Assembly: GCA_964402565.1 (NCBI GenBank)
Contig: CAYOCJ010000001.1
Location: 160,079-224,078 of the forward strand
Direction of reading: 5' to 3'
Origin: an uncultured Gammaproteobacteria bacterium
Lineage (GTDB): Bacteria > Patescibacteriota > Patescibacteriia > UBA1558 > 2-01-FULL-52-15
DNA: 64,000 bases
Shown here one piece after another: positions 2-36,356 of this stretch. The notes under the pieces are model-generated. The model was given only the letters and a program-made list of their open reading frames with translations, did not search any database and was not told where the DNA came from. The translations under genes and the position numbers were made by a program. Position 1 is the stretch's first letter. Every line of letters begins with the position of its first letter.

Positions 2-157
2 AATACGAAGCCATTAGTGGATGAGAATATTACCGAAGCTCTGCAGAATGGCGTAACAGTCGTACCGTATGTAAAGATAGGGGATGCGACATATGAGGGG
101 CCTCAGACATTAGCAGTATATCGAGCAGCAGTTGATGCAGTGCTAGCCAATAAGTGA
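2..157 (+). CDS. C-terminal fragment of a gene that starts upstream of the window (hypothetical)
   Basis: Open frame from the window edge to TGA at 155-157. Its stop is 1 nt from the ATG at 159, which suggests operon coupling. No recognisable motif. Confidence 0.3.
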   Translation, partial: NTKPLVDENITEALQNGVTVVPYVKIGDATYEGPQTLAVYRAAVDAVLANK

Positions 158-158
158 T

Positions 159-905
159 ATGAAGAAAAAATTTTTCATTGTATTGATCATACTAAGCCTG
201 ACGGCGACCTTCACAGCTCTGACACCAGCTTATGGAGCTGATGGTGATTGCAACTTTACATCGGCATCGGGCATTTTAGAAGGAAAAAGCGTTTTTAAGT
301 CGCCAGATTGCTCAGCGGCTGATCTTGCGAGGTTTATCAACGATCTCAACACCTTCTTCTACCGCCTTGCGATAGTTCTTGCAGTCCTCATGATCACCAT
401 CGGAGGTCTCCAATGGCTCATGGCCATCGGCAACTCCGGCAAGATCTCAAATGCGAAGGATACGATTCAGCAGGCAGTCATAGGCCTTATTCTAGCCCTC
501 ACCGCAATCCTTCTCTTCAACCAGATAGACACGAGCTTTACGAATTTGAATATCGGCACCATTAATTTGGTACCGCCGAAAGACGCGCCTTGTGAAGCAC
601 GAATGACCGCAGCATTGTGCAATTTTTCATCGCAGTATACTTGTTATTGGGAGCCAAAGGACAAAGATAATTATTTAGGAGCGGGGACCTGCAAACCGAT
701 TAACTGTAATGAAATTACGAAGTGTGAGGATTATCCGCGCAATGAAGCCATTTGCGTTGCAAATAATAACATGGGTATTTGTAACTTAAAACTTCATCAG
801 CAGCGATGTTTGTATACGTTTAAGACCGGCCTGACCTGGACCGATGTATGCCGGACCTACCCATGTTCGACCGCACACCCGGATGACAAACCATGCCCCA
901 AATAG
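159..905 (+). CDS. TrbC/VirB2-like pilin family protein with Cys-rich C-terminal extension
   Basis: Signal peptide, then two adjacent hydrophobic helices (FYRLAIVLAVLMITIGGLQWLMAIG...AVIGLILALTAILLF) typical of T4SS pilins. Cys-rich tail of about 110 aa. Confidence 0.5.
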   Translation: MKKKFFIVLIILSLTATFTALTPAYGADGDCNFTSASGILEGKSVFKSPDCSAADLARFINDLNTFFYRLAIVLAVLMITIGGLQWLMAIGNSGKISNAKDTIQQAVIGLILALTAILLFNQIDTSFTNLNIGTINLVPPKDAPCEARMTAALCNFSSQYTCYWEPKDKDNYLGAGTCKPINCNEITKCEDYPRNEAICVANNNMGICNLKLHQQRCLYTFKTGLTWTDVCRTYPCSTAHPDDKPCPK

Positions 906-914
906 TAATAGCGC

Positions 915-1976
915 ATGCTGATGAAACGAAACATTTTACTTTTCGCAGTCTTACTCACGATTTTTTTCAGCGTTTCTCAAAACGCGTTCGCGGCTGACTC
1001 GAATAAGCCCTGCTTCAGTTCGGCCTCAGGCCTTATTACATCAGGCGGTACGTCGGTCTTCACCAGTGAAAAATGTGATCCGACGGACCTTGTTTCATTC
1101 ATTAATACTCTCAACACCTTCTTCTACCGCCTTGCGATAGTTCTTGCAGTCCTCATGATCACCATCGGAGGTCTCCAATGGCTCATGGCCATCGGCAACT
1201 CCGGCAAGATCTCAAATGCGAAGGATACGATTCAGCAGGCAGTCATAGGCCTTATTCTAGCCCTCACCGCAATCCTTCTCTTCAACCAGATAGACACGAG
1301 CTTTACGAATTTGAAAGCGCCGGCGCTCTCGAGCGATTATGACTTTGTATGCAGTGATATCAAGGACCCTACGACTTGCACTTCGCATCCTGCGCCGGCA
1401 TTCTGTGTATGGTCATGCACTGACCCGGAAGAAATGAAAAAATTAGTTAAGCCGCCGAATAAACCTTGGAGTCCGAAATGGCAGAATCCAAACTGCATTC
1501 CCGGCGTCTGTAATTCATTAGCTGCAGGGGCAAGCCGCGTTTGCACCGAAGGGCTTGCAAAGGCGCAAAATAACCACGGCAGCAATGCGCCGGAACTGAA
1601 TACACTCATCGATTGTGTGAAAAAGACGGCAGTCTGGAGCCTTGTTGATGAGAATAAATTATTCACCTTCGATCAAGATCATAATCTGTGCAACTTTACG
1701 CGCGGAGACGCGACATGCGGTGAAGCCTGCTCGCACAAAAAAAATTCCTGCCATTACGGAGGTAAAACCGGGATCTCAGGCAGCTTAGCGGTCGACTTTA
1801 ATGCCAAAGACTCTACATTGACCGGCGAAAGCATACTGTATCGCAAATTGAATGACATTTCGCAGCAATGCAATTTCGGCTTTATTGTATTTGAGAATTA
1901 TGCAGGCGCGATTCACACCCATGTCAGTACGCAAAATTGCGATTCGGACGGTGAAGCTGACACCAACAAAGGCTAA
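915..1976 (+). CDS. TrbC/VirB2-like pilin paralog with longer Cys-rich C-terminal domain
   Basis: Same core as the 159-905 gene. About 203 nt (1115-1317) are 100% identical to 348-550. Divergent N-terminus and a tail of about 215 aa with many Cys. Confidence 0.5.
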   Translation: MLMKRNILLFAVLLTIFFSVSQNAFAADSNKPCFSSASGLITSGGTSVFTSEKCDPTDLVSFINTLNTFFYRLAIVLAVLMITIGGLQWLMAIGNSGKISNAKDTIQQAVIGLILALTAILLFNQIDTSFTNLKAPALSSDYDFVCSDIKDPTTCTSHPAPAFCVWSCTDPEEMKKLVKPPNKPWSPKWQNPNCIPGVCNSLAAGASRVCTEGLAKAQNNHGSNAPELNTLIDCVKKTAVWSLVDENKLFTFDQDHNLCNFTRGDATCGEACSHKKNSCHYGGKTGISGSLAVDFNAKDSTLTGESILYRKLNDISQQCNFGFIVFENYAGAIHTHVSTQNCDSDGEADTNKG

Positions 1977-1977
1977 G

Positions 1978-3357
1978 ATGCAAAAAAATACCATGTATGT
2001 CTGTTCGAACTGCGACGCCCAAGCTCCGAAATGGTCTGGGCGCTGTTTAGAATGCGGCAAATGGGGAACTTTGGCTGAGCATGCAAAGCCATTGGCGGCT
2101 GCAAAAGCTGCCCGCGGCGGAATCGCCGCGGGCGGAAAGTCTCGAACAGCCTTTTCCGCGGCTCCTGCCAAAGTGGTCAAGTTCTCTGACCTTGAGCAGG
2201 GGTCCGTGCAGCGTATTTCAGCCAAAGGATTTCCATTCGATGAGATTTTTCCGAACGGTATTGCCTTAGGCAGCCTCACCTTATTGACTGGTGAGCCCGG
2301 ATCGGGTAAATCAACACTTGCCTTGCAGTTGATGCGAACTGTGAGCTCGGAACATCAGGCACTATATGTTTCAGCAGAGGAGTCAGCAGTACAGGTAAAG
2401 GAACGAGCTAACCGCGTAGGTGCATTTGGCCAGCATTTTAGCATTACGGAAAGCACCGATCTTGAAGAGATCATTGCGACATTGCATGTGCAGAGGCCGA
2501 AAGTCGTTTGCATCGATTCATTACAAGCCATTGTGAGTGCAGAAGTCACCGGCGATGCAGGTTCTCTGAATCAAATCCGAGCCGTGACCGCACAACTGTT
2601 AGAACTTGCACGCAGAGAGCAGATTGCGGTTTTATTGATAGGGCATGTGACGAAAGATGGGACGCTTGCAGGGCCAAAATCGCTCGAACATTTGGTTGAC
2701 GCAGTGTATTACCTTGAGGCTGACCATCATAGTGCTTATCGTCTCCTGCGTGTATATAAGAACCGTTACGGCGCTTCAGGGGCGGTCCTGGTTATGCAAA
2801 TGGGCGGGGGAGGCATGACAGCCGTTGCCAATCCTGCAACGATTTTCATTCATAATTTTAGCCCTAAGCCAGGTTCAACACTGACGGTCACTGAAATTGA
2901 TGATCAATTTTTCTTTCTCGAAGTACAAGCCTTGGTCGCGAAAAGCGGCTTTGGTTATGCCAAGCGCACTGCGTCTGGTTTTTCAAAATCGCGTCTAGAG
3001 TTGCTACTCGCGATAATCAAAAAACAATTGCACCTCGATACAGACTTGTATGATATCTATATCAATATTGCCGGAGGCTTTTCAGTGCACGAACCAGCGC
3101 TTGATCTTGCGGTACTGATGAGCATACTCTCAAGCATGAAAGAGCAATCCTTGCCTCCAAAAACAGTAGTCTTTGGTGAGCTTGGTCTTTCAGGAGAGCT
3201 TCGTGTCGTGAAAGACACAGGCGCACGTTTGAAGACCATAGCAGAACATGGATTTAGCACAGTCTACTTCCCGCCGCTTGAGCAGAAAGTACAGAGCAAA
3301 TTAAGTTTACATTCATTTGCCTCTATTACCGAGCTGGTGAAGAAGTTGGGGTGGTAG
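1978..3357 (+). CDS. radA: DNA repair protein RadA/Sms
   Basis: N-terminal C4 zinc finger (CSNCDAQ...CLECGKWG), Walker A GEPGSGKST, RecA-like core, Lon-like C-terminal domain. ATG at 1978 lies just after the upstream stop. Confidence 0.9.
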   Translation: MQKNTMYVCSNCDAQAPKWSGRCLECGKWGTLAEHAKPLAAAKAARGGIAAGGKSRTAFSAAPAKVVKFSDLEQGSVQRISAKGFPFDEIFPNGIALGSLTLLTGEPGSGKSTLALQLMRTVSSEHQALYVSAEESAVQVKERANRVGAFGQHFSITESTDLEEIIATLHVQRPKVVCIDSLQAIVSAEVTGDAGSLNQIRAVTAQLLELARREQIAVLLIGHVTKDGTLAGPKSLEHLVDAVYYLEADHHSAYRLLRVYKNRYGASGAVLVMQMGGGGMTAVANPATIFIHNFSPKPGSTLTVTEIDDQFFFLEVQALVAKSGFGYAKRTASGFSKSRLELLLAIIKKQLHLDTDLYDIYINIAGGFSVHEPALDLAVLMSILSSMKEQSLPPKTVVFGELGLSGELRVVKDTGARLKTIAEHGFSTVYFPPLEQKVQSKLSLHSFASITELVKKLGW

Positions 3358-3440: not shown

Positions 3441-4211
3441 TTGAGAAAGGAGAAATCCGTGAAACCTCCGTATATCGGCATCACCGGATTCATGCAGAGA
3501 AGCGAAGTTCAGGAGATCCTGAGCGTCGTACCGCCGAAATCGTTGAGCAAGGTGATGATCGGCGTCCTCGCAAGCTCGAAAACGATCCTGGGTCTTCCGA
3601 ACAAATGGCCCAACCGCTATCCCAAACCTGAGGCTTTGGGAGAGATCTTCGTCGACCATCGATCAGCGTTAAATTTGGTGCATTTCAACACAAAGGAACC
3701 AGAACAGCTCTATAGCCAATTGCTCCGAACGCGAGAACTTGCCGGGCCGAATTGTCATGGATTTCAGCTCAACATCGAATGGCCTGACCCAGCTGTTCTC
3801 GAACGGCTACTCAATGAACCGAATCCGCCGGCCATCGTTTTACAGGTTGGTGCCAGTGCTTTCGAAAGTGTTCAGGAATCGCCGATCCTTCTGGCACAGC
3901 GGATCGCACACCAGTACGATCACCTCATCGACTATGTGCTCTTTGACCCGAGTGGCGGATATGGCATGCCGTTCGATCCGGAAGTAGCCATGCACTGTTT
4001 CCGTGAGTTCAAAAAATTCGGCCTGTCGGCAGGCATCGGCGTTGCCGGCGGCTTGAGCCCGGCGACCCTGCACTTGCTTGCGCCTCTGCTCGAGTATTAT
4101 CCGTACATCAGCATCGATGCTGAAGGCCGTTTGCGTGACGAAAGCGATAGTCTCAAGATCGCCCTGTCACAGCGCTACCTGACAGCAGCATTTGCTCTCC
4201 TTGGTCGGTAA
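3441..4211 (+). CDS. TIM-barrel protein resembling phosphoribosylanthranilate isomerase (TrpF-like)
   Basis: IGITGF start, LFDPSGGYGMPFD and GIGVAGGLSP motifs that parallel the TrpF LLDSGxGGTGxxFDW and ILAGGLNPENV motifs. No other trp genes nearby. Confidence 0.35.
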   Translation: MRKEKSVKPPYIGITGFMQRSEVQEILSVVPPKSLSKVMIGVLASSKTILGLPNKWPNRYPKPEALGEIFVDHRSALNLVHFNTKEPEQLYSQLLRTRELAGPNCHGFQLNIEWPDPAVLERLLNEPNPPAIVLQVGASAFESVQESPILLAQRIAHQYDHLIDYVLFDPSGGYGMPFDPEVAMHCFREFKKFGLSAGIGVAGGLSPATLHLLAPLLEYYPYISIDAEGRLRDESDSLKIALSQRYLTAAFALLGR

Positions 4212-4267: not shown

Positions 4268-6349
4268 TTATTCCCAGTGCAACCCTACTCGTTCATCAAG
4301 CTTATGGGTTATTGAGTTGTAATATTCTAAATTCGTATCATCTTGCACCAGCTGATCAACATACTTTTTTGCTTTCTCGATCAAGTCAGTATCGCGCAAA
4401 GTCGCTATTTTGAAATTTACGATACCGGATTGTCGACTGCCAAAGACCTCGCCTTCGCCGCGTAGCTTCAGATCAGCCTCAGCGAGCTCAAAGCCATCAT
4501 TACTTTTTGTCAGCAGCTCAAGTCGTTGTTTGGTTGTTTCATTTTTGCTGTCAGTAAAAAGCAAACAATAGGACTGTAAATCATTTCTTCCCACGCGACC
4601 GCGGAATTGATGTAACTGAGCAATGCCGAATCTGTCGGCGCCTTCGATGATCATGACCGTTGCCTGTGGTATATCAATGCCCACTTCGATAACCGAGGTC
4701 GTGACGAGGATGGGGAAGGCGCCGTTCTTGAAATCTTCGAGGATTTTTTTCTTCTGATCTGTTTTTAGCTTACCGTGTAAGTAGCGAAGCTCAAGCTCAG
4801 GGAAAATATCTTTCTGCAGGCGTTCATATTCTGCAAGCACTGACTTGCTTTCACTTCTATCGTTTTCGTTAATGAGAGGACACAGGATAAAAACCTGTTG
4901 TCCTTTTTTGATAAGTCCCTGAATAAAGGTATAGGCTTTTGGCCGATTGGTTTCATCGACAATTTTTGTAATGATTGGTTTTCTGCCCTGCGGCCGCTCT
5001 TTAATATTGGAAACAGCAAGCTCACCATAGAGCGTGAGCGCAAGCGTGCGGGGGATTGGCGTTGCCGTGAGTGAGAGCAGATGCGGCACTATGCTGTCTC
5101 TGCGCATTGAAGTGAGGGTTTTCCGCTGCCCAACGCCGAACCGGTGCTGTTCGTCAACGATCACCAGTCCCAAATTCGGCACATGCAGATCTTTTTGTAT
5201 CAAACTATGTGTTCCGATGGCCAGAAGTATCGTTTCATCGGATAATCCCTCGAGAATTTTTTTGCGGGTCGTTTTTTTGTTTTTATATACGGCGTATTTT
5301 GAGCTTAATAAAGCAATGGGAAGGTTCGGAAGGAGTTTTCGCAGCGTTTCATAATGCTGTAATGCCAAAACCTCGGTGGGCGCCATGAGCGCGCTTTGAT
5401 AGCCCGCAAGTGCTGTGCTTAAAATGCCCATGGCAGCGACGACGGTCTTGCCCGAGCCTACATCGCCTTGTATCAGGCGGTTCATTGGCTCGCTTTTCTC
5501 TAGATCTTGAACAATCTGGTAGCCAGCCTTTCTTTGGTCATCAGTAAGTGTGAAGGGAAGTGTTTTAACCCAATCAGAAATATCCTCTTGTTTGAAGGGG
5601 ATTTGCGGCGCATCATGCTGCTGATAGAAACGTTTGGCATAGCCAACGCCTAATTGAAGCCAGAACAGTTCCTCAAATTTTAAGCGTCGTATCGCCTTCT
5701 CAAGCTTCTCAGGATCATCAGGGAAATGCACTTGTTTCAGGGCATCTGCGAGAAGCGACAGTTTTTCTTTTTGTATCGTTGTGCTCGGAATTTCTTCAGA
5801 AGGGAGTTCAGCGCTTTTGAGAGCTGTCTGTATCAGGAAACGTAGTTGCTTATGGCTGATACCCTCAGTTAATGAATAGTAGGGGATAATGTGAGCAGTG
5901 TGCAGCTGTTCTTCTCTCACTTTTTCATACACCGGATTCGTGAATTCCGGTCCTACTAAACTTATTTTTGCTTTGCCAGAAAGGTATATCTCATCACCAA
6001 CTTTTAATGTCTTACTGATATACGATTGTCCAAACCACACTGCTTTGAGTTCCCCAGTGTCATCTTCCATGCGCAAGTCGGTGATGAACATTCTTTTTTT
6101 GAATGATCGAAATGCTTTCACCGCGATAATTTTTCCACGGACAGTAACGATGGTGTCCGCAGGCACATCCGCGATATGTACGACATTGCGCATGTCTTCA
6201 TAGCGCATGGGTACATACCAAAGCAGGTCAGCAATAGTCTCTATGCCGAGCTTACTCAACCTTGGAGCAGTTTTGCTGCCGATATGATGCAAATTTTTGA
6301 CCGGAGATTCGAGAGGAAGCATAGCAGTATTGTACCAGAAGAAATACAA
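4268..6349 (-). CDS. recG: ATP-dependent DNA helicase RecG
   Basis: Wedge/OB N-terminal domain, Walker A GDVGSGKT, DEQHRFG (DEAH) box, helicase C domain. The true start may be M10 at 6322. Confidence 0.9.
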   Translation of the reverse strand: MYFFWYNTAMLPLESPVKNLHHIGSKTAPRLSKLGIETIADLLWYVPMRYEDMRNVVHIADVPADTIVTVRGKIIAVKAFRSFKKRMFITDLRMEDDTGELKAVWFGQSYISKTLKVGDEIYLSGKAKISLVGPEFTNPVYEKVREEQLHTAHIIPYYSLTEGISHKQLRFLIQTALKSAELPSEEIPSTTIQKEKLSLLADALKQVHFPDDPEKLEKAIRRLKFEELFWLQLGVGYAKRFYQQHDAPQIPFKQEDISDWVKTLPFTLTDDQRKAGYQIVQDLEKSEPMNRLIQGDVGSGKTVVAAMGILSTALAGYQSALMAPTEVLALQHYETLRKLLPNLPIALLSSKYAVYKNKKTTRKKILEGLSDETILLAIGTHSLIQKDLHVPNLGLVIVDEQHRFGVGQRKTLTSMRRDSIVPHLLSLTATPIPRTLALTLYGELAVSNIKERPQGRKPIITKIVDETNRPKAYTFIQGLIKKGQQVFILCPLINENDRSESKSVLAEYERLQKDIFPELELRYLHGKLKTDQKKKILEDFKNGAFPILVTTSVIEVGIDIPQATVMIIEGADRFGIAQLHQFRGRVGRNDLQSYCLLFTDSKNETTKQRLELLTKSNDGFELAEADLKLRGEGEVFGSRQSGIVNFKIATLRDTDLIEKAKKYVDQLVQDDTNLEYYNSITHKLDERVGLHWE

Positions 6350-27258: not shown

Positions 27259-28419
27259 ATGGCCAAAAAGAGCTATTTGGGCATCGATATCGGTACATCC
27301 GGCATCAAAGTTACCCAGCTTGAGAATTTCAAAGGTCAACCGAAGCTTGTTACCTATGGTTATGCGGAAGCGAAGTTCGATATTATCCGCGATCAGTCCA
27401 AAGAACTGCAGACAACCGTAGCGAATTTGATCGGCCAGGTATTGCAGCGGTCGAGGGTCACGACAACGGCAGCTATCGCTGCACTTCCGACCTTCTCGGT
27501 TTTTAACTCGATCATCAGCTTGCCGCGCATGTCCAGAAGGGACCTTGATACGGCTATCAAATGGGAAGCAAAAAAGTTCATACCGCTGCCTATCGATGAG
27601 ATGATCCTTTCGCACAAGATCCTGGAAGGCGCGCAGTCGAGCTTTGCAGAGAAGCTCTTCATGCTGAATATGAGTTCATTGATGAAGAAAAAGGGCGATG
27701 CAGGGAAAGATGCGCCCGGACTGGCTGCTGGAGCGCCTCCGGTCCAGCCTGGCGGCAAAGAGGATGGCGATGATGCGAAGAAAAACGTACGCATACTTCT
27801 CACGGCGGCTCCAAAAAATCTGGTATCAAGGTATGTCGAAATCTTCAAGGCTGCAAACCTGCATTTATTGAGCCTTGAAACAGAAGCGCTGGCCCTTTCC
27901 CAGTCGCTCATCGGCAGCGAGAATGCAAGCGTCATGGTCATCGACATTGGCTCAGCCGCGACCAATATTTGCATGGTCGAAAAGGGCGTACCGGTCCTGA
28001 ATCGGGGACTGGATATCGGCGGTTACCATATTACGAAATCAATCAGCAATAGTTTAAACGTCAATTTTGAGCGGGCCGAGCAATTCAAACTGGATTTCGG
28101 TATCCGCATGCAGGATCAGCGCGGCGGTATTCCGGATGCGATCAAAGATAGCTTGCAGCCGATCATCAATGAAATCCAGTATGTATTTGAACTCTATCAA
28201 AATCAGGGGAGCATTACCGTCGATCGGATCTTGCTTTCCGGCGGCTCAGCATTCCTGCCGAACCTGACCAATTACTTGTCGCAACTCCTGAAGATCCCGG
28301 TCTATATCGGAAATCCCTGGGACCGCGTCGTGTACCCGGTAGATCTGAAACCGGTGCTCGAGAGCATTGGCCCGCAAATGGCTGTGTCTATCGGCTTGGC
28401 AATGAAATATATCGGCTAG
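27259..28419 (+). CDS. pilM: Type IV pilus assembly protein PilM
   Basis: Actin-like ATPase fold. Starts YLGIDIGTSGIKV. Confidence 0.85.
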   Translation: MAKKSYLGIDIGTSGIKVTQLENFKGQPKLVTYGYAEAKFDIIRDQSKELQTTVANLIGQVLQRSRVTTTAAIAALPTFSVFNSIISLPRMSRRDLDTAIKWEAKKFIPLPIDEMILSHKILEGAQSSFAEKLFMLNMSSLMKKKGDAGKDAPGLAAGAPPVQPGGKEDGDDAKKNVRILLTAAPKNLVSRYVEIFKAANLHLLSLETEALALSQSLIGSENASVMVIDIGSAATNICMVEKGVPVLNRGLDIGGYHITKSISNSLNVNFERAEQFKLDFGIRMQDQRGGIPDAIKDSLQPIINEIQYVFELYQNQGSITVDRILLSGGSAFLPNLTNYLSQLLKIPVYIGNPWDRVVYPVDLKPVLESIGPQMAVSIGLAMKYIG

Positions 28420-28440
28420 CAAAAGAGCGTATCGAAATTC

Positions 28441-30813
28441 ATGTTTGATAAAAAATCAAAAGATCAGAACGACTTGGATCTTGGCGAGATCAATCTTCTT
28501 CCTGAAGATCTGAGGGGCTCAGCTGAGAAGTATAAGAAAGCAAAGAATACCAAAGAGGCTCTTTATCAGCTTCGCGCTCCAAAAAAAGTAAAAAAGCGCC
28601 GCCGCGTCCTTGCATGGCTGCCGTTTTTCGGCGGAGAGCATTGGGAGGTTACGCCTGACGCCGCTGGTAAACCGCGGCCCGCAGGACCGAAGATCCCTGA
28701 TGCCGTCGCTGTTGAAACAAATGCTCCGAAAGCTCCCGAAGATGTCGGCCGATCCGCAACACCGAATGAGTTCGGGATCATTGCTCCTGTGTTCGGTACT
28801 AAGACAGGCAATGGGCCTCTGTCGCCGAAGACAAAGCGATCATTCAAGCAGGGCCTATCGCTGGCATCATTTTTTGGAAAAAAACGGCCAGGCGCTCCTG
28901 CCCACTCTGGTGCCGTGCCGGTGGCACAGAATGTACAGGAACAGCGTCCGGTGCACACCTTTACGACGCCGCCCCGGCACTACAGTTTGTTGTCAGACAC
29001 TGCATTGACGGAAAAAGAGCAATCGAGCGTTTCAGCGCCGCATGGGAAGCCGATGGACGGTAGTGAGAGCGTGAGTCACGGTATGCGTCCGGCGATGATC
29101 CAAACCATGCGCCCGGCGCCTGCCGAGCAAAGTGCGAAGGCTTCCCGCAAATGGCATTTGCCGAAATGGCTGGACATCTTTTCACTGCTGGCACTATTTT
29201 CCGGACCAGGAAAAGCTCGATCGCAATCTCAGAAGCGACCTATCGAGCCCGGTTCTCAATTGGCTGCGGCGCGCGAACCAATGCCTTCTCAGGGCCCGCG
29301 GCCTATCGAGCCAATTCATTTACATGCTTCACCCGCGAAGCCAGAGATGGATCGTATGCCATCGCGCGCTCCGATAACGCCCGTTGCGGTGCCAAAAACG
29401 ATCGAAGCGGTGAATACGTTCACCGGCGTCATGCAAAGAACTCCATCACCGATGTCGAAAGCGCCGAAGGTTCCCGGGAAATGGCATTTGCCGAAATGGC
29501 TGGATATATTCTATTGGCTCGACCTATTCACGCGTACTGACAAACAGCATCCTATGCCGCCGAAAAGATCTTCCATTGTTCCGCCGGCGCCGCCGAAACC
29601 ATTGGGCTTCACGCCGCCTGCACCTGCTCCTCAACCTTTGCAACCGGTCATTACTCCTATCCAGCCGGCGATCAAGCCTGTTGAGATGAAAAAAGAACAG
29701 ATGCCGGTAACGCCGATTACGCCTATCGCTTTTCCGAAACCCATCGAACCTATGAAAGCGCCTTTGCCCAGTATTCAGAAAACGCCGATGCCTCAGCCAA
29801 AGGCACCGAAACTTCATACAGAATGGCATATGCCGAAATGGCTGACCATGGCTTTTTGGCTCCATTTATTCCGACGGCAGCATACGTCTTTGCCAATGCC
29901 TAACAAGCATGCAGCGCCAGCACCTCCGGCTCCGAAACCGATGCTGACGCCAATGCCTGCAAAAACGCCTGTGACGCCTCCTCCTATGCCTATGCCCAAA
30001 GCACCTGCTCCGGCCATGCAAAGCGTACCAGGCATGCCTTCTCTTGCATCGGCAGCCGGCTCTGTGCACCCCGCGCAGCCGGTCACACCGGCAGCAGCGC
30101 CACGTCCGGTTTCAAATGATATTGTAGCTATCAAAGATGACGGGGATCATTCAAAAGAAAAAAAGCAAAAAGGACATCGCGGCATGCTATTCCATATGCC
30201 GACGAAAAATGCTTTTGCCAATGCATCGAAAGAGCTGCGGGAGATCAATCTTATTCCGGGCACGTATTTTGCACCGAAAGGCTGGAAGCAAATTAGCCTC
30301 AGCATCGGCATCGCGGTTTTTGTATCAGCAGGCCTGATAGGGCTTGCATTTGGCGGCCTGCATCTCTGGAGGATACAGCTCGATAAGCAAACAGCGGCGA
30401 TCGACACGCAGATAGAGTCGGTCAAGAACCGCATCTTGCTCTATAATGACCAAGAACCTGAAATGAGCGCTTTGGGAAATCGTGTGGAACTGGTGGCGCA
30501 ATTGCTGAATAAGCATGTGTACCTCACGAATTTCTTCAAACTACTTGAAAAGTATACATTGCCGGACGTGTATTACGATGGCGCTTCTGTTTCAGCTTCG
30601 GCAACTTCGATCACATTGAGCGCGCATGGCTCTAGTTTTGAAACCATTTCTCGCGAACTGCAATTAATGGGTTTGCCTGAAGCACAGGAATTCGTGACGA
30701 AGGCAACTATATCCAATGCGCAGTTGACGAAAAATGAAGATGGCGTTGATCAGGTCAACTTTAATATTGAATTGAATTTGAATCCAAATTTGTTCTACTA
30801 CCATGCTGGGTAA
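28441..30813 (+). CDS. PilN-like protein with a roughly 580-aa Pro-rich N-terminal insertion
   Basis: INLLP PilM-binding motif at aa 17-21 and again (INLIP) just before the single TM. The C-terminal coiled-coil resembles PilN. Three cytoplasmic repeats of about 110 aa, each with a WH(L/M)PKWL motif. Confidence 0.55.
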   Translation: MFDKKSKDQNDLDLGEINLLPEDLRGSAEKYKKAKNTKEALYQLRAPKKVKKRRRVLAWLPFFGGEHWEVTPDAAGKPRPAGPKIPDAVAVETNAPKAPEDVGRSATPNEFGIIAPVFGTKTGNGPLSPKTKRSFKQGLSLASFFGKKRPGAPAHSGAVPVAQNVQEQRPVHTFTTPPRHYSLLSDTALTEKEQSSVSAPHGKPMDGSESVSHGMRPAMIQTMRPAPAEQSAKASRKWHLPKWLDIFSLLALFSGPGKARSQSQKRPIEPGSQLAAAREPMPSQGPRPIEPIHLHASPAKPEMDRMPSRAPITPVAVPKTIEAVNTFTGVMQRTPSPMSKAPKVPGKWHLPKWLDIFYWLDLFTRTDKQHPMPPKRSSIVPPAPPKPLGFTPPAPAPQPLQPVITPIQPAIKPVEMKKEQMPVTPITPIAFPKPIEPMKAPLPSIQKTPMPQPKAPKLHTEWHMPKWLTMAFWLHLFRRQHTSLPMPNKHAAPAPPAPKPMLTPMPAKTPVTPPPMPMPKAPAPAMQSVPGMPSLASAAGSVHPAQPVTPAAAPRPVSNDIVAIKDDGDHSKEKKQKGHRGMLFHMPTKNAFANASKELREINLIPGTYFAPKGWKQISLSIGIAVFVSAGLIGLAFGGLHLWRIQLDKQTAAIDTQIESVKNRILLYNDQEPEMSALGNRVELVAQLLNKHVYLTNFFKLLEKYTLPDVYYDGASVSASATSITLSAHGSSFETISRELQLMGLPEAQEFVTKATISNAQLTKNEDGVDQVNFNIELNLNPNLFYYHAG

Positions 30814-31498
30814 ATCTAAAAAGAAAAAAGAAGCATCAGGACAGGCTCAAAAGAAAGAGCAGTCTTCCCTCGCGCTTCAGATTGTGAATCGTTATTTGCG
30901 GTGGGTTTTGTTCTTGGTCGTCTGCATCATGCTCTTCATCGGTTATACCTTCATCCTCCAGCAGCAGATCAGCGAAGCTCAAAGTGCCGCTAAGGAAAGT
31001 TTGCCGCTCAAACAAGAGGTGCTTGATGATCTGAAAACGATCGAGACTAAGCTTGACCAGGCATCCTCGGATTATGACCGTATTTTGAGAGAGAAGAAGC
31101 CGGCACTCGATCGTATTGCATTGTTGCTTCCTCGACATTCAGAATACGGGGAGCTCTTCCCATTGCTCAATAAAATAACACAGGCGAGCGGTTTCACATT
31201 GCAATCGATGAATCTGACATTGCCAGCCGATGCTGATGCGCCACCGGCATCTACGTCAGACACTTCGGTTTCTGATCCGATCACATCAGGTTTAGTGCAT
31301 GCCATCAATATACGCTTGAGCGTCCAAGGTGGTGACTATGAGGGCATTAAGAATTACTTGAAAAATCTTGAGCGAAATGTGCGCCTGTTCGATATTTCGT
31401 CAGTGACGGTAAGCGGGTCCGTTTTCATTCAGCAAAATAACGGAGTTACCACAACGCCGGCCTATGATCTGGAGCTCAAAACATACTATCAGCCTTAG
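30803..31498 (+). CDS. PilO-like pilus assembly protein
   Basis: Lys-rich N-terminus, single TM, coiled-coil, periplasmic domain. Sits between the PilN-like gene and pilB. Confidence 0.5.
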   Translation: MLGKSKKKKEASGQAQKKEQSSLALQIVNRYLRWVLFLVVCIMLFIGYTFILQQQISEAQSAAKESLPLKQEVLDDLKTIETKLDQASSDYDRILREKKPALDRIALLLPRHSEYGELFPLLNKITQASGFTLQSMNLTLPADADAPPASTSDTSVSDPITSGLVHAINIRLSVQGGDYEGIKNYLKNLERNVRLFDISSVTVSGSVFIQQNNGVTTTPAYDLELKTYYQP

Positions 31499-31501
31499 CA
31501 T

Positions 31502-31879
31502 ATGAAAAAGGATAAAATTTTGATCATTGTTTTTCTGCTGCTGCTTGCGTCATCCGGCTTAGTATTGTTCCGCGGATTCAGATCAGAAACTTTCAGCTCG
31601 GTGGAAACGCCGACAAGCTCGAATGATGATGTGGCTAAAACACAGGCTGAGGCAGTAAAGTCGAAGATCACGAACGCCATAAACAAGATCGATACAGGCG
31701 GATCCCTCGATACGCTTATTCAGAGTCAGCAATTCAAAGATCTGTTTCTGGTCGAAGGTCAGGGTGAGACCGATCTGCCGGTGCAGGTAGTTACGACCAC
31801 GACGATCGGTGATTATGGACGGCCGAATCCGTTCCTGGTGCCGACACTCCTGGCAACAACGACAAAACCAAAGAAATAA
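31502..31879 (+). CDS. Hypothetical secreted protein in pilus operon (PilP-like?)
   Basis: Signal/TM then a Thr-rich tail. Operon position only. Confidence 0.3.
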   Translation: MKKDKILIIVFLLLLASSGLVLFRGFRSETFSSVETPTSSNDDVAKTQAEAVKSKITNAINKIDTGGSLDTLIQSQQFKDLFLVEGQGETDLPVQVVTTTTIGDYGRPNPFLVPTLLATTTKPKK

Positions 31880-31894
31880 AAGGAGAGCTGAGAT

Positions 31895-33646
31895 ATGGTG
31901 AAGGCTATTGTAAAACAATATATCGATTTGCTGCGCGAGAAGCAGCTGATCGGTGACGCTGACCAGAGCGAGACGCTTGCGCAGGATTTTGCTGCAATTG
32001 CAGACGTTGATACCTTTCTTGCCCGCCGCCAGGTCATCAATGAAGAAGAGATCACCAAAGCAAAAGCTGAACTCTATAACTTTGAGTACATCAACCTCAT
32101 CGGCAAATCTATCAGCTCAGGCTTATTGAATCTCCTGCCGCGGGATCTGTCAGATAATTATAAGATCGTCGTGTTTGACCGGGAGGGTACGGTCATTAAA
32201 GTAGGTATGGTCGATCCGGGTAATTTCAAGGCTATCGAAGCTGTTGATTTCATGGCGCTCAAGAACGGGCTGCAGGTCAAATACTTCGCCATATCGACAG
32301 ACAGTTACCGCGCAGCTTCGAAGCAGTACGAGAATATCCACGAAGAGGTAGGGGAGGCTCTCGACACCGCAGAAAGCATCTTTGCGCCGAAAGAAGAGGT
32401 CGGCCTTGAAACCGACGGCAAAAAGACGCTCGATGAAATGATCAAGAGCGCGCCGGTGACGAAGATTGTTTCCGTCGTTTTGCGCCACGCGATCGAGGGG
32501 CGGGCATCAGATATTCATATTGAGCCTGTCGGCAACCAGAGCCGTATTCGCTACCGCATCGATGGCATTTTGCATACGACCATCGTATTGCCGATCTATG
32601 TGCATGCTGCGCTCGTGTCGCGCGTCAAAGTTATGGCAAATCTAAAGATCGATGAAACAAGAATACCCCAAGACGGCCGTATTCGCTTGAATATTTTCAA
32701 TAAAGACGTGGACTTCCGCGTTTCGACCATTCCGTTGATGAATTCTGAGAAGGTCGTGATGAGAATTCTGACCACTCCGGAAAAAGCCCCGACCTTGGAA
32801 GATCTCGGTTTCCAGGGCCTCCAGCTTGCAAAGATGCAGCGGAATATCAAGAAGCCGAACGGCATGTTCCTGGTCACGGGTCCTACGGGAAGCGGTAAAT
32901 CAACAACACTCTTCGCTGTTCTCTCTATTTTGAATGCAGAATCAGTGAATATCACGACATTGGAAGATCCGGTAGAATATTTCATCTCAGGCGTGAACCA
33001 AAGCGCTATTCGACCGGAAGTCGGTTTTACCTTTGCGAACGGCCTTCGCGCTCTGCTGCGGCAAGACCCGAATATCATCATGGTCGGCGAAATCCGCGAT
33101 AATGAAACAGCATCCCTTGGTATTCAGGCGAGCTTGACCGGACACTTCCTGCTCTCGACCCTGCACACCAATAGCGCAGTGGGCGCCATCCCGCGTTTGT
33201 ATGATATGAAAGTCGAGCCATTCCTGCTTTCCAATACGTTGAATATCGTGGTCGCGCAGCGCCTTGTCCGAAAAATTTGCACGTTCTGCAAGCGTCCGAC
33301 CGACGTTGCGCCTGATGTATTGGAACGCGTGAAATCTGACTTTGCAGTTATACCGCCGAATGCTATGTATGGAGGCGTCACGCCTACATCGCCGCTTACT
33401 TTTTTCAGAGGAGCTGGCTGCCCGCGCTGCGGCCACTCAGGCTATTCAGGCCGGTCGACGATCGTTGAGGCCATCGAAGTCACCAAGAGCATGAAAGATC
33501 TGATTACGACCGGCTTTCGGCGGAAAGAGGTCGATGAAGAGTTGAAAAAACAGGATTATATCACTATGAAGCAGGATGGCATTATCAAAGCCTTGCTCGG
33601 CTCTACCACCTTGGAAGAGGTTATGATGGCGAGCGAGGAAAAATAA
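31895..33646 (+). CDS. pilB: Type IV pilus assembly ATPase PilB (GspE family)
   Basis: Walker A VTGPTGSGKSTTL, GspE N-domain, tetracysteine CTFC...CPRCGHSG. Confidence 0.9.
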   Translation: MVKAIVKQYIDLLREKQLIGDADQSETLAQDFAAIADVDTFLARRQVINEEEITKAKAELYNFEYINLIGKSISSGLLNLLPRDLSDNYKIVVFDREGTVIKVGMVDPGNFKAIEAVDFMALKNGLQVKYFAISTDSYRAASKQYENIHEEVGEALDTAESIFAPKEEVGLETDGKKTLDEMIKSAPVTKIVSVVLRHAIEGRASDIHIEPVGNQSRIRYRIDGILHTTIVLPIYVHAALVSRVKVMANLKIDETRIPQDGRIRLNIFNKDVDFRVSTIPLMNSEKVVMRILTTPEKAPTLEDLGFQGLQLAKMQRNIKKPNGMFLVTGPTGSGKSTTLFAVLSILNAESVNITTLEDPVEYFISGVNQSAIRPEVGFTFANGLRALLRQDPNIIMVGEIRDNETASLGIQASLTGHFLLSTLHTNSAVGAIPRLYDMKVEPFLLSNTLNIVVAQRLVRKICTFCKRPTDVAPDVLERVKSDFAVIPPNAMYGGVTPTSPLTFFRGAGCPRCGHSGYSGRSTIVEAIEVTKSMKDLITTGFRRKEVDEELKKQDYITMKQDGIIKALLGSTTLEEVMMASEEK

Positions 33647-33679
33647 CCCGGCATCCTATAACAATTAACAGCTCTACCT

Positions 33680-34045
33680 ATGCAAAAGAAAATAATGATC
33701 GTAGAAGATGACGAGTTCTTGGTGCAGATGTACGCAACAAAGCTCGAATTGCAGGATTATCTGGTCACCACGGCCGGGGACGGCAAGCAGGCGATGAAGC
33801 TCATTCGAAAAGACAAGCCGGATCTGATTTTGCTGGACCTGAACCTGCCGGTGATGGACGGCTTTCAGGTGCTTGAAGAATTAAAGAAAGATGCGGCGCT
33901 CAAGAGCATTCCGGTGCTGGTACTGACGAACTATGGGCAGAAAGAACATATCGACAAGTGCCTGGCGCTTGGTGCCGTGGATTATCTTATCAAAGCTCAT
34001 TTCGTCCCGTCCGAGGTTGTCGATAAAATAAAAGTCCTTATTTAA
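33680..34045 (+). CDS. Response regulator, REC domain only (CheY-like)
   Basis: IMIVEDDEFLV...DLILLDLNLPVMDG. Phospho-acceptor Asp context. No output domain. Confidence 0.8.
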   Translation: MQKKIMIVEDDEFLVQMYATKLELQDYLVTTAGDGKQAMKLIRKDKPDLILLDLNLPVMDGFQVLEELKKDAALKSIPVLVLTNYGQKEHIDKCLALGAVDYLIKAHFVPSEVVDKIKVLI

Positions 34046-34059
34046 TCTGAATCGAGATC

Positions 34060-35127
34060 ATGCCGGCATCCAGCGTCGAAACTCTTTCACTGAATTCAAT
34101 TTTCAGCACCGCTTTGGAAAAAAAAGCGACTGATATTCATTTGATTGCGGGAAATTACCCGGTGTTGCGGCTGGACAGTAAGCTATTCGTCCTGGCAGAT
34201 GAGAAAGTGCTGAGCGTCGATATCATCATGTCCCTGATAGACGCCTGGCTGACCCCCGAAGAAAAAGAACGACTCAATAAAGAAAAAGAGATCAGGACAA
34301 TTTACACGTGGGCTGATCGGGCGCGCTTCAGAGCCTCGATTTTTTATCAGCAAGGGTATCCGGCCATTTCATTGCGGGCTATTCCGCGAGACATTCCTGA
34401 TCCGAAGATCTTGGGCATTCCAGACCTCTTGCTTGACCGCATCACGAACAGGCAGGGCTTGATCATACTCTGCGGGCCTTTTAACTCTGGCCGCACAACG
34501 ACTATGGCTAGTTTGTTGCAATATGTGAATATGAGCCATAGCAGGCGCATTGTGACGCTTGAGCGGCCTATCGAGTATATGATCATCAATAATAAATCGA
34601 TCATCAATCAGCGTGAAGTAGGCCGCGATACCCCTTCATTCATCCAGGGCTCGAAAGATCTGCTCGACGAGGACGCTGATATCGTTGCGATCAGCGAAGC
34701 TTCAGAGCAAGGCATCCAGGAACTTGTCTTGACGCTTGCAGAGAGCGGCAAATTAGTGATCATGATCATGAACGCTGCATCAAGTATTTCGGCAATCGAA
34801 CATTTCATTGACTCCATTCCGAAAGAACGCAGGCAATGGGCGAAAGACGCTTTATCGCATGTTCTGATCGCCATTGCAGCACAGCGCCTGGTGCCGGGCG
34901 CCGGAGGAGGCCGTGTGCTGGCGGTAGAAGTGCTCACGATGAATGCCGCAGTGACATCGATCTTGCAGGAGGATAACTTCGCACAGCTCGGCACTGTTCT
35001 GCAGACATCTCGCGATGAAGGAATGATCAGTCTGGATTATCGTTTAGTAGAGCTGGTGCGCACCGGCAAGATATCTGCGGAAGAGGCGAAAAGATATGCG
35101 GTCGACCCAAGCTCAATTAGGTCATAA
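34060..35127 (+). CDS. pilT: PilT-like retraction-ATPase homolog with degenerate Walker A
   Basis: PilT N-domain and fold. Walker A reads GPFNSGRTT instead of GPTGSGKST. Confidence 0.7.
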   Translation: MPASSVETLSLNSIFSTALEKKATDIHLIAGNYPVLRLDSKLFVLADEKVLSVDIIMSLIDAWLTPEEKERLNKEKEIRTIYTWADRARFRASIFYQQGYPAISLRAIPRDIPDPKILGIPDLLLDRITNRQGLIILCGPFNSGRTTTMASLLQYVNMSHSRRIVTLERPIEYMIINNKSIINQREVGRDTPSFIQGSKDLLDEDADIVAISEASEQGIQELVLTLAESGKLVIMIMNAASSISAIEHFIDSIPKERRQWAKDALSHVLIAIAAQRLVPGAGGGRVLAVEVLTMNAAVTSILQEDNFAQLGTVLQTSRDEGMISLDYRLVELVRTGKISAEEAKRYAVDPSSIRS

Positions 35128-35144
35128 GCAGGGAACATCAATAC

Positions 35145-36356
35145 ATGCCAATTTTTAAATACAGAGCACTGAACTCATTACGACAGCTTCAAAAAGGGCT
35201 GGTTGAAGCAGCAACCATAGAAGCTGTTGCTGAACTATTGGTCGAAAGAAAATTGACCATTGTTTCCATCGAAGAAGGGAATCAGGGCGGCTTTTCATTG
35301 GCTGCGATCCCGTTTTTTGGCAAAGCAAAACGAAAAAATGTAGTCATTTTTTCGCGGCAGCTTGCGGTGATGATGGCAGCGACCGTGCCTATTGTACAGG
35401 CGCTGCGCATCCTCATCGTACAGACAGACGATAAGGTGCTCAAACAGATCATTTCCAGCATGGCCAATGACATTGATGGCGGTATGAAACTTTCTTCAGC
35501 ATTCGCGAAACATCCTGAAACATTCAGCAATTTCTATGTCGCGATGTTGCGGTCCGGTGAAACAAGCGGACGATTGGAAAAGGTTCTGAATTACCTTGCA
35601 ACTCAGATGGAGAAAGACTATGACCTGGTCAGCCGCATCAAGGGGGCGATGATCTATCCGGCCTTTATTATTACCTCGCTTGTTGGCGTAGGAGCCGCCA
35701 TGCTTATCTTCGTTGTTCCAAAAATGACGGCATTGCTTCAGGAAAATGGCGCAGAGCTGCCGTTCATGACTAAAATGCTGATTGCAGTCAGTAATTTTCT
35801 TACGCATTTCTGGTGGGCACTTCTGTTGGGGTTCATTGTCTTTATTACGGGCGTTCGCGTAGCCTTGCGCTCAAAAGTAGGCCGCGAGACATGGGACAAT
35901 AGCAAGCTGCATATTCCGATCTTCGGCGTCCTCTTCAAAAGGATCATTTTGTCGCGCTTTGCAACGGGTCTTTCTACGCTTATCAAAGGAGGCGTGCCTA
36001 TCAGCCGCGCATTGAAGATAACCTCGGACGTCGTATCGAATCAGGCATTCAAGGCGCTGATAGAGGAGACCGTGAAAGAAGTGGAGGACGGAAATTCGAT
36101 TACCACGATTTTTTCGCAGAATAAATTGGTGCCGGCGATCGTTTCTCAGATGATGGGAGTCGGTGAACGTACCGGCCGCATGGACGAGGTCCTGGATCGT
36201 TTAGGCGATTTCTATTCGAGGGAAGTAGATACTATGATCGGAAGCCTTACGTCGCTCATCGAGCCGGTCATTATGATCATTCTTGGTGTTGGCGTAGGCC
36301 TTATGGTTTCAGCAATTATTTTGCCGATTTTTCAGGTCGCAAATAGCATTTCTTAA
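35145..36356 (+). CDS. pilC: Type IV pilus platform protein PilC (GspF family)
   Basis: Two GspF repeats, 3 TM. Confidence 0.85.
   Translation: MPIFKYRALNSLRQLQKGLVEAATIEAVAELLVERKLTIVSIEEGNQGGFSLAAIPFFGKAKRKNVVIFSRQLAVMMAATVPIVQALRILIVQTDDKVLKQIISSMANDIDGGMKLSSAFAKHPETFSNFYVAMLRSGETSGRLEKVLNYLATQMEKDYDLVSRIKGAMIYPAFIITSLVGVGAAMLIFVVPKMTALLQENGAELPFMTKMLIAVSNFLTHFWWALLLGFIVFITGVRVALRSKVGRETWDNSKLHIPIFGVLFKRIILSRFATGLSTLIKGGVPISRALKITSDVVSNQAFKALIEETVKEVEDGNSITTIFSQNKLVPAIVSQMMGVGERTGRMDEVLDRLGDFYSREVDTMIGSLTSLIEPVIMIILGVGVGLMVSAIILPIFQVANSIS

Follow-up and report, generated by a model that had tools for sequence, protein, structure and literature searches.

Tandem VirB2-like pilins with a nucleotide-identical core and different cysteine-rich tails, one carrying a putative LAS/Hedgehog-type zinc hydrolase domain

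Two tandem genes at the start of the 64,000-nucleotide (nt) stretch of DNA studied here (assembly GCA_964402565.1, contig CAYOCJ010000001.1, positions 160,079 to 224,078; this whole stretch is referred to as the window) encode what are, judged from their sequences, modular VirB2-like pilins of the Pfam family PF18895. The two proteins, designated p1 and p2, share a hairpin core whose DNA is identical in both genes and continue into different cysteine-rich C-terminal tails. The evidence strongly supports that the core DNA is kept identical through ongoing intragenomic gene conversion (concerted evolution), and from its sequence relationships the terminal domain of p2 is concluded to be a putative, divergent zinc hydrolase of the LAS type. 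Taken as a whole, the locus is probably the distal end of a chromosomal cluster resembling a type IV secretion system (T4SS), of the kind found in Patescibacteria (candidate phyla radiation, CPR), in which a DsbA-like oxidoreductase gene, p1, p2 and radA follow one another, the tails face outward, and the two pilins with their converted cores, one of them bearing the LAS-type head, would contribute to one mixed structure.

The pilin assignment is based on PF18895 (T4SS_pilin), the VirB2-like pilin family of Patescibacteria (Pfam), whose gathering cut-off of 26.6 bits is passed by p1 (35.9 bits) and p2 (33.9 bits) with profile positions 5-69 of 71 covered. Scanning p1 and p2 against NCBIfam gave a single weak match, to a mycoplasma pilin-like family of integrative and conjugative elements, and when the profile of the 144-member family was compared with PDB sequences, Agrobacterium VirB2 ranked first at a non-significant E value of 0.26. 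From its sequence, p1 (248 amino acids) is organized into a Sec-type signal peptide (residues ~1-27), a short N-terminal segment with two cysteines, the VirB2-like helical hairpin and a tail of 118 residues; p2 (353 amino acids) has a signal peptide, a small N-terminal segment with, as in p1, a putative disulfide, the hairpin, a cysteine-rich linker (residues 134-221) and the C-terminal LAS-like domain. Signal cleavage motifs of the AYG/A and AFA/A type (slash denoting the cleavage point) are present in the pilin sequences. The AlphaFold2 (AF2) model of full-length p2, built from the family alignment of 144 members, shows a signal helix (2-23) and two helices (56-91 and 96-126) arranged as a long hairpin. 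Its mean predicted local distance difference test (pLDDT) score is 82.3, with values of 86-97 in the hairpin, lower ones in the cysteine-rich linker, and a confidently modelled C-terminal domain that exceeds 90 over most of its length. Both proteins are larger than the classical VirB2 pilin (mature ~70-120 amino acids without extra domains), and tblastn detected no further pilin copies in the window.

Compared at a fixed offset of 765 nt, the two genes match exactly over as many as 207 nt in a row (Table 1), and this match belongs to a repeat that a repeat search traced to 235 nt at 94% identity (316-550 and 1081-1315). An exact repeat of 207 nt cannot arise by chance within 64 kb. A first-pass annotation, made from the letters of the sequence, had noted a perfectly identical stretch of 203 nt at 348-550 and 1115-1317; the repeat exists and is somewhat longer than was noted, and the first interval stands, but the second one is shifted by 2 nt, such that the two intervals taken literally match at only 40 of 203 positions. 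The tract codes for 68-69 identical residues (LNTFFYRLAIV...IDTSFTNL) that span both long helices of the hairpin, and the earlier description of a two-helix hydrophobic core agrees with the AF2 model of p2. Confirmed is the suggestion that the regions 5' of the tract resemble each other mainly at the protein level: the first 130-133 residues of p1 and p2 are 71% identical, the 5' ends of the two genes being highly diverged in nucleotides. After the SFTNL motif nothing significant is shared. The pair has 95 identical residues in total, or 38% of the 248 in p1, a whole-protein figure that hides the identical core. A cause of the identity at the RNA level was considered and rejected, the folding energy of the tract lying at z = +0.85 relative to shuffled sequences and promoter- or terminator-like sites occurring at chance level. 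As a separate observation on composition, the G+C content at third codon positions is 0.68 in the tract compared to 0.48 and 0.51 in the tails, the overall G+C content of the window being 0.47; the high value in the tract could reflect GC-biased conversion or the codon usage of membrane helices.

Related genomes with pilins of the same kind, denoted L001, L002 and so forth, reveal how the identity came about. The pilin pair of L001 shares 300 nt at 100% identity; over the 211 nt shared by the L002 pair, identity is 88%, and most of the mismatches fall on third codon positions. Synonymous (dS) and nonsynonymous (dN) divergence was compared for the same 68 core codons in the window, L001, L002 and L003. 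Both measures are 0 within the window pair and within the L001 pair; within the L002 pair, dS is 0.87 and dN 0.056. Between the window and L001 they amount to 1.23 and 0.053, and between either of these and L002 or L003, dS ranges from 0.98 to saturated and dN from 0.19 to 0.25. Expressed as nucleotide identity, the cores agree at 100% within genomes (window, L001) and at 59-80% between genomes. The core is also the most conserved part of the protein, retaining 93% amino acid identity between genomes (dN 0.05) at saturated synonymous sites. The LAS tail is on the second pilin gene in all three genomes that have the pair (window, L001 and L002), and the first-gene tails of L001 and L002 are of another type and mutually alike. 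From the same order of tails in three genomes together with core identity within genomes it follows that the duplication predates the split of the genomes and that the cores were homogenised afterwards. Converted cores group by genome and unconverted tails by orthologue, a clear conflict of histories within the same genes. The window and L001 agree on the codon at which the tract has its 3' border (after SFTNL), and homology to the other tail goes no further than this codon; their 5' borders differ. The recent gene conversion proposed in the first-pass annotation is thus well borne out, paralogue dS being 0 in the window and in L001 compared to 1.23 across the two genomes.

Observations on contigs of a Hainich groundwater organism are relevant in this context. 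Three independent contigs end in an exact 55-nt repeat of the dsbA 3' region that lies just downstream of the LAS-pilin (5556-5610 and 6960-7014 in L003, and the ends of L004 and L005). In addition, L015 (1-685) and L003 are 94.9% identical over 688 nt, comprising the dsbA end and the 5' two-thirds of the pilin gene, and then enter different tails. Probably the Hainich contigs reflect another tandem pair, homogenised over a far longer unit at which assemblies break off, or else an allelic exchange of tails.

Two other origins of the identical core were considered besides conversion. The first is that each lineage independently underwent a tandem duplication very recently, after which one of the tails was replaced (domain shuffling). 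Perfect identity over 207 nt does resemble a fresh duplicate, and the core-tail junction seems prone to recombination, as the alignment of L015 with L003 illustrates. We nevertheless consider this origin very improbable, for the LAS-tailed pilin is in second position in three genomes whose cores are separated by dS of 1.2-2.5, the 5' ends of both genes are highly diverged in the very genome in which the cores are identical, the tract lengths differ (207 and 300 nt) despite a common 3' boundary, and the L002 pair is older and partly decayed (dS 0.87) and still has lineage-specific residues in common. The second is an artefact of assembly or polishing, according to which the real cores would be merely similar and reads would have been cross-mapped in building the consensus. 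Consensus polishing could indeed erase a few real differences in the core, which counts against our interpretation, and repeats of this kind do disturb assemblies, as seen in the three related contigs that end in a repeat beside the pilin gene. Even with a few differences erased, the cores would still be far closer to each other than orthologues are. Both copies in the window are in frame, have distinct flanks and are located on one contig of 633 kb; an independent metagenome-assembled genome (MAG), that of L001, exhibits a like pattern with another tract length and another core sequence; and the 88% identity in a third genome (L002) implies that assemblers do resolve differing copies. Given the independent assemblies and the intermediate state of L002, an artefact is unlikely, and we accord it hardly any weight.

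Concerted evolution ends where the tails begin, and the two tails appear to have taken quite different courses. They were described initially as unrelated cysteine-rich extensions of about 110 and 215 residues. Size and composition agree well with what was found (118 residues with 12 Cys in p1, 220 residues with 14 Cys in p2), but unrelatedness applies only beyond an opening module, C-x8-C-x7/8-C-x-W, which follows directly after the core in both tails and is invariant in an alignment with nine relatives (C146, C155, C164 and W166 of p2). Past this module, no similarity between the tails of p1 and p2 was detected. The closest relative of p1 is the first pilin of L001 (58% identity over 175 amino acids), in which the tail aligns only through its first ~45 residues; no search returned a homologue for the p1 tail past these residues. 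On sequence evidence, the p1 tail behaves as a fast-evolving, disulfide-rich module and the p2 tail as a conserved, enzyme-like one. The initial idea that the displayed tails diversify, possibly as adhesins, may still apply to p1 but does not apply to p2, whose tail is conserved over its full length in orthologues (p2 as a whole aligns at 52% identity over 97% of the query) and whose LAS domain is found in hundreds of pilin-like proteins.

The terminal domain of p2 comprises ~125 residues with a near-invariant H..H..D..E..HxH pattern. In nine homologous tails, the positions of H, S-C-H-x-G, D, E and H-x-H are invariant. An exhaustive HMMER search with the alignment of these nine tails recovered the domain (E <= 0.001) in the representatives of 677 protein clusters, formed at 50% identity, with lengths of 83-1852 amino acids and the domain almost always at the C-terminus. 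The fusion of pilin and domain is widespread, since 88 of 120 scanned domain carriers also match PF18895. A homologue search with the p2 tail alone returned nothing, which is a limit of the word index, since whole-protein searches do find tail homologues. Alignment by hhalign of the domain profile (148 sequences) with the N-terminal domain of human Sonic hedgehog (ShhN; reference sequence identical to PDB 6e1h_C) gave a probability of 78.7%, an E value of 1.7e-5 and a score of 35.3. In controls, 200 shuffled ShhN sequences reached a mean score of 10.7 (sd 1.85, maximum 18.2) and the reversed sequence 12.5. The alignment places each of the predicted active-site residues of p2 on its counterpart in Shh (Table 1; residues in human numbering, E176 and H134 being also numbered E177 and H135), and these residues are 95-100% conserved among the 148 representatives. 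Fold comparison, though with E values that are not significant individually, points in the same direction. When the domain was modelled alone with AF2 (pLDDT 76.6), the 15 best PDB matches in Foldseek were Hedgehog N-domains (E 0.04-0.09, probability up to 0.95, template modelling (TM) score ~0.4), with the LD-carboxypeptidases LdcB/DacB and VldE ranking next; Hedgehog, LdcB and DacB were again at the top with the full-length p2 model, and among viral models, phage proteins annotated as 'Peptidase M15A, C-terminal' were retrieved (probability 0.93, TM 0.50). Homology to LAS zinc hydrolases, with metal-binding and catalytic residues apparently intact, is considered fairly secure at the level of a remote assignment. 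We propose a peptidoglycan-peptidase activity by analogy with the bacterial members of the fold; the H-X6-D, H-X-H and E177 motif and the cell-wall role of M15 enzymes have been described (PMC6027127).

The genomic surroundings connect the pilins with disulfide formation and, through relatives, with secretion. The open reading frame (ORF) at the start of the window matches Thioredoxin_4 weakly, at the C-terminal end of the profile, and is 73% identical to the last 49 amino acids of the protein that L001 encodes in this place, a Thioredoxin_4/DSBA member with a CPAC motif; the corresponding values for L002 and L003 are 54% and 43%. Coupling of the pilin genes to the upstream gene, proposed in the first-pass annotation, is evident from the junction (TGA at 155-157, ATG at 159). 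That the upstream gene might belong to a T4SS cluster was correct insofar as syntenic relatives have PrgI and a VirB4-like ATPase there, but the immediate neighbour is the DsbA-like thiol oxidoreductase and no core part of a T4SS. In L001 the gene order is a 438-residue protein with no assigned function, PrgI (VirB3-like, 32.7 bits, above threshold), TraC-like, VirB4-like ATPase (P-loop_TraG, 98 bits), three further genes of this uncharacterised sort, DsbA-like, two pilins (301 and 370 amino acids), RadA, RecG, DUF5667 and sigma-70; the window is collinear with L001 downstream of the pilins (radA, recG, DUF5667, sigma-70). L003 shows VirB4, three uncharacterised genes, DsbA and a pilin, and L002 shows DsbA and two pilins. 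In L001 and L003, the pilins are located 3-4 kb downstream of the VirB4-like ATPase, with PrgI also nearby. DsbA-pilin linkage is thus present in the window, L001, L002, L003 and the distant L023, whose LAS-pilin has ~38% identity with p2. L001 (11073-14946) and L023 (9318-12671) both repeat the order DsbA-like, LAS-pilin, RadA. In the window, radA starts 1 nt past the stop codon of p2, no terminator-like site was found at the junction, and the two genes are probably co-transcribed. Recombination and transformation are processes in which both RadA and RecG take part. The linkage of DsbA, pilin and radA might have a functional meaning, for example in DNA uptake through the T4SS. The DsbA-like gene is invariably preceded by one for a protein of ~410-423 residues without a Pfam match (L001 7200-8432, L003 3887-5116, L023 8040-9311, the last of these with no VirB4 nearby), which may work specifically with the DsbA-pilin module.

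The mechanism proposed for the locus builds on the topology of VirB2-type pilins, both termini of which face away from the cytoplasm, so that the cysteine-rich tails would be extracytoplasmic. Their disulfides could be formed outside the cell by the co-encoded DsbA-like oxidoreductase, and the tails would be exposed either at the surface of the cell or on a T4SS pilus, at its end or along its length. Identical cores would present the same interfaces to the assembly machinery and to neighbouring subunits, thus enabling p1 and p2 to enter one structure. In such a mixed structure, a fast-evolving Cys-knot head on p1 might mediate contact or adhesion, whereas p2, with a head of the peptidoglycan-peptidase type, might locally cut peptide stems or cross-links of the cell wall, either the cell's own or that of the host. 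By this means p2 would supply the wall-opening role that VirB1-type hydrolases have in other T4SSs. Most Patescibacteria with VirB2 homologues are without VirB1 (PMC12102498), and the T4SS and the pilin array are essential for the epibiotic growth of Southlakia epibionticum (Wang et al. 2023, PMC10633639).

Several findings weigh against this interpretation. Regarding the pilin family, the first-pass annotation had suggested TrbC/VirB2-like proteins and a search with PF04956 (TrbC); the superfamily is right, as judged from PF18895, but the scores with PF04956 itself (13.7 bits for p1, 16.5 bits for p2) are under the cut-off of 27.9. Regarding the p2 domain, nine members gave no match in Pfam (E <= 10), NCBIfam or PHROGs (E <= 1), and the domain profile gave none among PDB sequences; the Foldseek matches (E 0.04-0.4, TM 0.4-0.5) are not significant individually; and a 7-residue insertion makes the His-Asp spacing H280-X13-D294, not the canonical H-X6-D. 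Regarding the secretion system, neither VirB4 nor VirD4, nor any other T4SS core gene, is present in the 64-kb window, and the link to VirB4 for this genome comes from synteny with relatives. Regarding assembly, a VirB2-type filament may have no room for heads of 120-220 residues if each subunit bears one, and in other lineages the LAS-pilin is accompanied by small pilins of 110-122 residues that are more like major subunits, none of which is adjacent here.

The last-mentioned points lead to the principal rival explanation, in which the hairpin does no more than hold the proteins in the membrane: p1 would be a Cys-knot protein and p2 a cell-wall peptidase, both at the cell surface and never polymerising, the LAS domain remodelling the cell's own wall, for instance for passage of the T4SS or of a type IV pilus. 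The tails (118 and 220 residues) are larger than the core, and family members reach 1852 amino acids with the hairpin often internal between large flanking domains (for example core 394-452, LAS 510-628). The LAS-pilins of L022, L023 and L024 are without a VirB4 gene within 10 kb, small canonical pilins are present beside LAS-pilins in other lineages, and a patescibacterial T4SS pilus has not yet been seen, PMC12857230 treating it as a possibility. These arguments meet with the observation that the core is the most conserved part of the protein and is actively homogenised, which fits a packing or assembly interface better than an anchor. Furthermore, LAS-pilins head arrays of the small canonical pilins, and Southlakia requires its pilin arrays as well as the T4SS (PMC10633639). 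A role as mere anchor is therefore rated as rather unlikely, and co-assembly of p1 and p2 in one structure is preferred. The arrays themselves offer additional detail: in L022 (10001-14364) and L024 (10001-15000), the LAS-pilin (555-579 amino acids) has He_PIG and fn3-like repeats separating the core from the enzyme domain and heads an array with four (L022) or three (L024) more PF18895 pilins, including the small ones. These arrays come after a solute-binding protein gene and adjoin a VanW/PG_binding_4 gene.

Comparison with known systems helps to separate what is familiar from what is not. Tandem arrays of 2-11 VirB2-like genes have been described in 383 patescibacterial assemblies, with a mean identity of 25% and a maximum of 54% (Quinonero-Coronel et al. 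2025, PMC12102498). The window pair resembles these arrays in PF18895 membership, tandem and chromosomal arrangement, a VirB4/PrgI cluster adjoining in relatives, CPR-type context and proposed host interaction; unlike the published pilins, treated as small and highly divergent, p1 and p2 have a nucleotide-identical core and large cysteine-rich C-terminal domains, one of them enzyme-like. Neither conversion nor the DsbA linkage nor a LAS domain was encountered by us in PMC12102498. There exist clear parallels also with the Trw T4SS of Bartonella, in which amplified trwL (virB2) and trwJ paralogues underwent concerted evolution and diversifying selection according to Nystedt et al. 2008 as cited in PMC12102498, and with the virB2 paralogue families of Anaplasma, which have variable termini (PMC3556328). 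In all of these, tandem VirB2 paralogues are homogenised in part by recombination and vary in exposed N- or C-terminal regions. Bartonella and Anaplasma are diderm animal pathogens with short pilins and short hypervariable segments, whereas the p1/p2 organism is probably a monoderm-type episymbiont whose pilins have whole domains appended, one of them conserved.

As regards the enzyme-like head, the p2 domain shares with LAS hydrolases (Hedgehog N-domain and Hh-DD-peptidases, M15A; LdcB/DacB, M15B; PMC6027127, PMC4087270) the residue order H..H(Zn)..D(Zn)..E(base)..H-x-H(Zn), the SxHYxG...AVD and HxHxS motifs, and, as fold searches without individually significant matches suggest, a central sheet with helices. 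It differs from them by the H-X13-D spacing, an N-terminal cysteine-rich subdomain (CN[YF]TRG...C..C.H), several conserved cysteines, fusion to a pilin hairpin and the lack of a match to curated profiles. With VirB1-type hydrolases, including the bifunctional SLT and CHAP enzymes of Gram-positive systems, it has in common the proposed local opening of peptidoglycan and a gene in or next to the secretion cluster. The fold and the chemistry are different (lytic transglycosylase or CHAP compared to LAS metallopeptidase), and VirB1 is soluble and separate, whereas the p2 enzyme and the pilin form one polypeptide. Arrays of pilin genes in Patescibacteria were known already, as was the concerted evolution of VirB2 paralogues in Bartonella. 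Relative to the literature searched, a nucleotide-identical core in otherwise different genes, the conserved DsbA-pilin-radA linkage and, above all, a LAS/Hedgehog-like domain fused to pilins appear to be new.

Table 1. Positions of the pilin locus, the predicted active-site residues of p2 and other features in the window (position 1 is the first nucleotide)
Feature	Position	Strand	Remarks
DsbA-like oxidoreductase gene, 3' end	2..157	+	Last 51 codons and stop; membrane-anchored, thioredoxin-fold; start lies upstream of the window
Pilin p1	159..905	+	Identical to database protein P0004
Pilin p2	915..1976	+	Length counted from ATG 915; database version P0001 (351 amino acids) starts at ATG 921; orthologues P0002, P0003, P0005
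Gene-conversion tract, copy 1	344..550	+	100% identical to copy 2; codes for pilin hairpin core
Gene-conversion tract, copy 2	1109..1315	+	Codes for pilin hairpin core, in p2
LAS / Hedgehog-DD-peptidase-like putative zinc hydrolase domain of p2	1578..1949	+	Residues 222-345; hhalign, Foldseek, conservation, pLDDT
p2 H274	1734-1736		Shh H134; predicted upstream catalytic histidine; 145/148 representatives
p2 H280	1752-1754		Shh H140; predicted zinc ligand
p2 D294	1794-1796		Shh D147; predicted zinc ligand
p2 E327	1893-1895		Shh E176; predicted catalytic base; 141/148 representatives
p2 H334	1914-1916		Shh H180; first His of H-x-H (H334-T-H336); 148/148 representatives
p2 H336	1920-1922		Shh H182 (zinc ligand); second His of H-x-H; 146/148 representatives
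radA/sms	1978..3357	+	Pfam matches AAA_25, KaiC-type ATPase, Zn_ribbon_LapB, ChlI; synteny in L001 and L023
recG	4268-6349	minus	Downstream of radA
PilM-like	27259-28419		Type IV pilus cluster
790-residue protein	28441-30813		Type IV pilus cluster; no Pfam match
PilB-type ATPase	31895-33646		Type IV pilus cluster
PilT-like ATPase	34060-35127		Type IV pilus cluster
PilC/T2SSF	35145-36356		Type IV pilus cluster

Other features of the window and its relatives are recorded for completeness. The interval between radA and recG contains an ORF for 256 amino acids with a TTG start (3441-4211) and no Pfam match, in the position of which L001 has a 122-residue gene of unrelated size. A type IV pilus cluster (27259-36356; Table 1) constitutes a filament system separate from the T4SS pilins. 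Relatives with a named lineage are mostly Patescibacteria (Komeilibacteria, Moraniibacteriota, Paceibacterota). Together with the 633-kb contig and the type IV pilus cluster, they make it probable that the window comes from a CPR/Patescibacteria bacterium. The MAG of L001/L006 (GCA_964422585.1, CAYRBH010000005.1), the closest relative, is labelled 'uncultured Gammaproteobacteria bacterium'; this label looks wrong, the PF18895 pilins, the PrgI/VirB4 cluster and the synteny all fitting genomes of the Patescibacteria type.

Lastly, our analysis has importance for a secretion system of which, to our knowledge, neither the function in Patescibacteria nor the way in which cell walls are crossed is known to anyone. 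Southlakia is the only genetically tractable patescibacterium, and there the T4SS and the pilin array are essential for epibiotic life. A pilin with an apparently intact LAS-type peptidase site and its own DsbA, recurrent in hundreds of lineages, offers a concrete and testable handle on this problem, and an enzyme-bearing pilin may explain how episymbionts pass a secretion pilus through the cell wall. The pattern of conversion marks the part of the protein that needs compatibility between paralogues and so provides indirect evidence for co-assembly. Mosaic pilin pairs of this kind are hidden by whole-protein identity statistics, and the C-terminal LAS-like domain merits a family model of its own. 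Going further, and with considerable doubt, one may conceive of patescibacterial T4SS pili as mosaic, enzyme-armed filaments with a shared, converted core and varied heads, in which a head of the Hedgehog/DD-peptidase type would cut the host peptidoglycan in order for the pilus or channel to reach the host membrane, and which would add to the Hedgehog-type peptidase fold a large bacterial branch not recognised before. If that were true, the LAS-pilin would be both a determinant of host range and the missing 'VirB1' of these essential systems.

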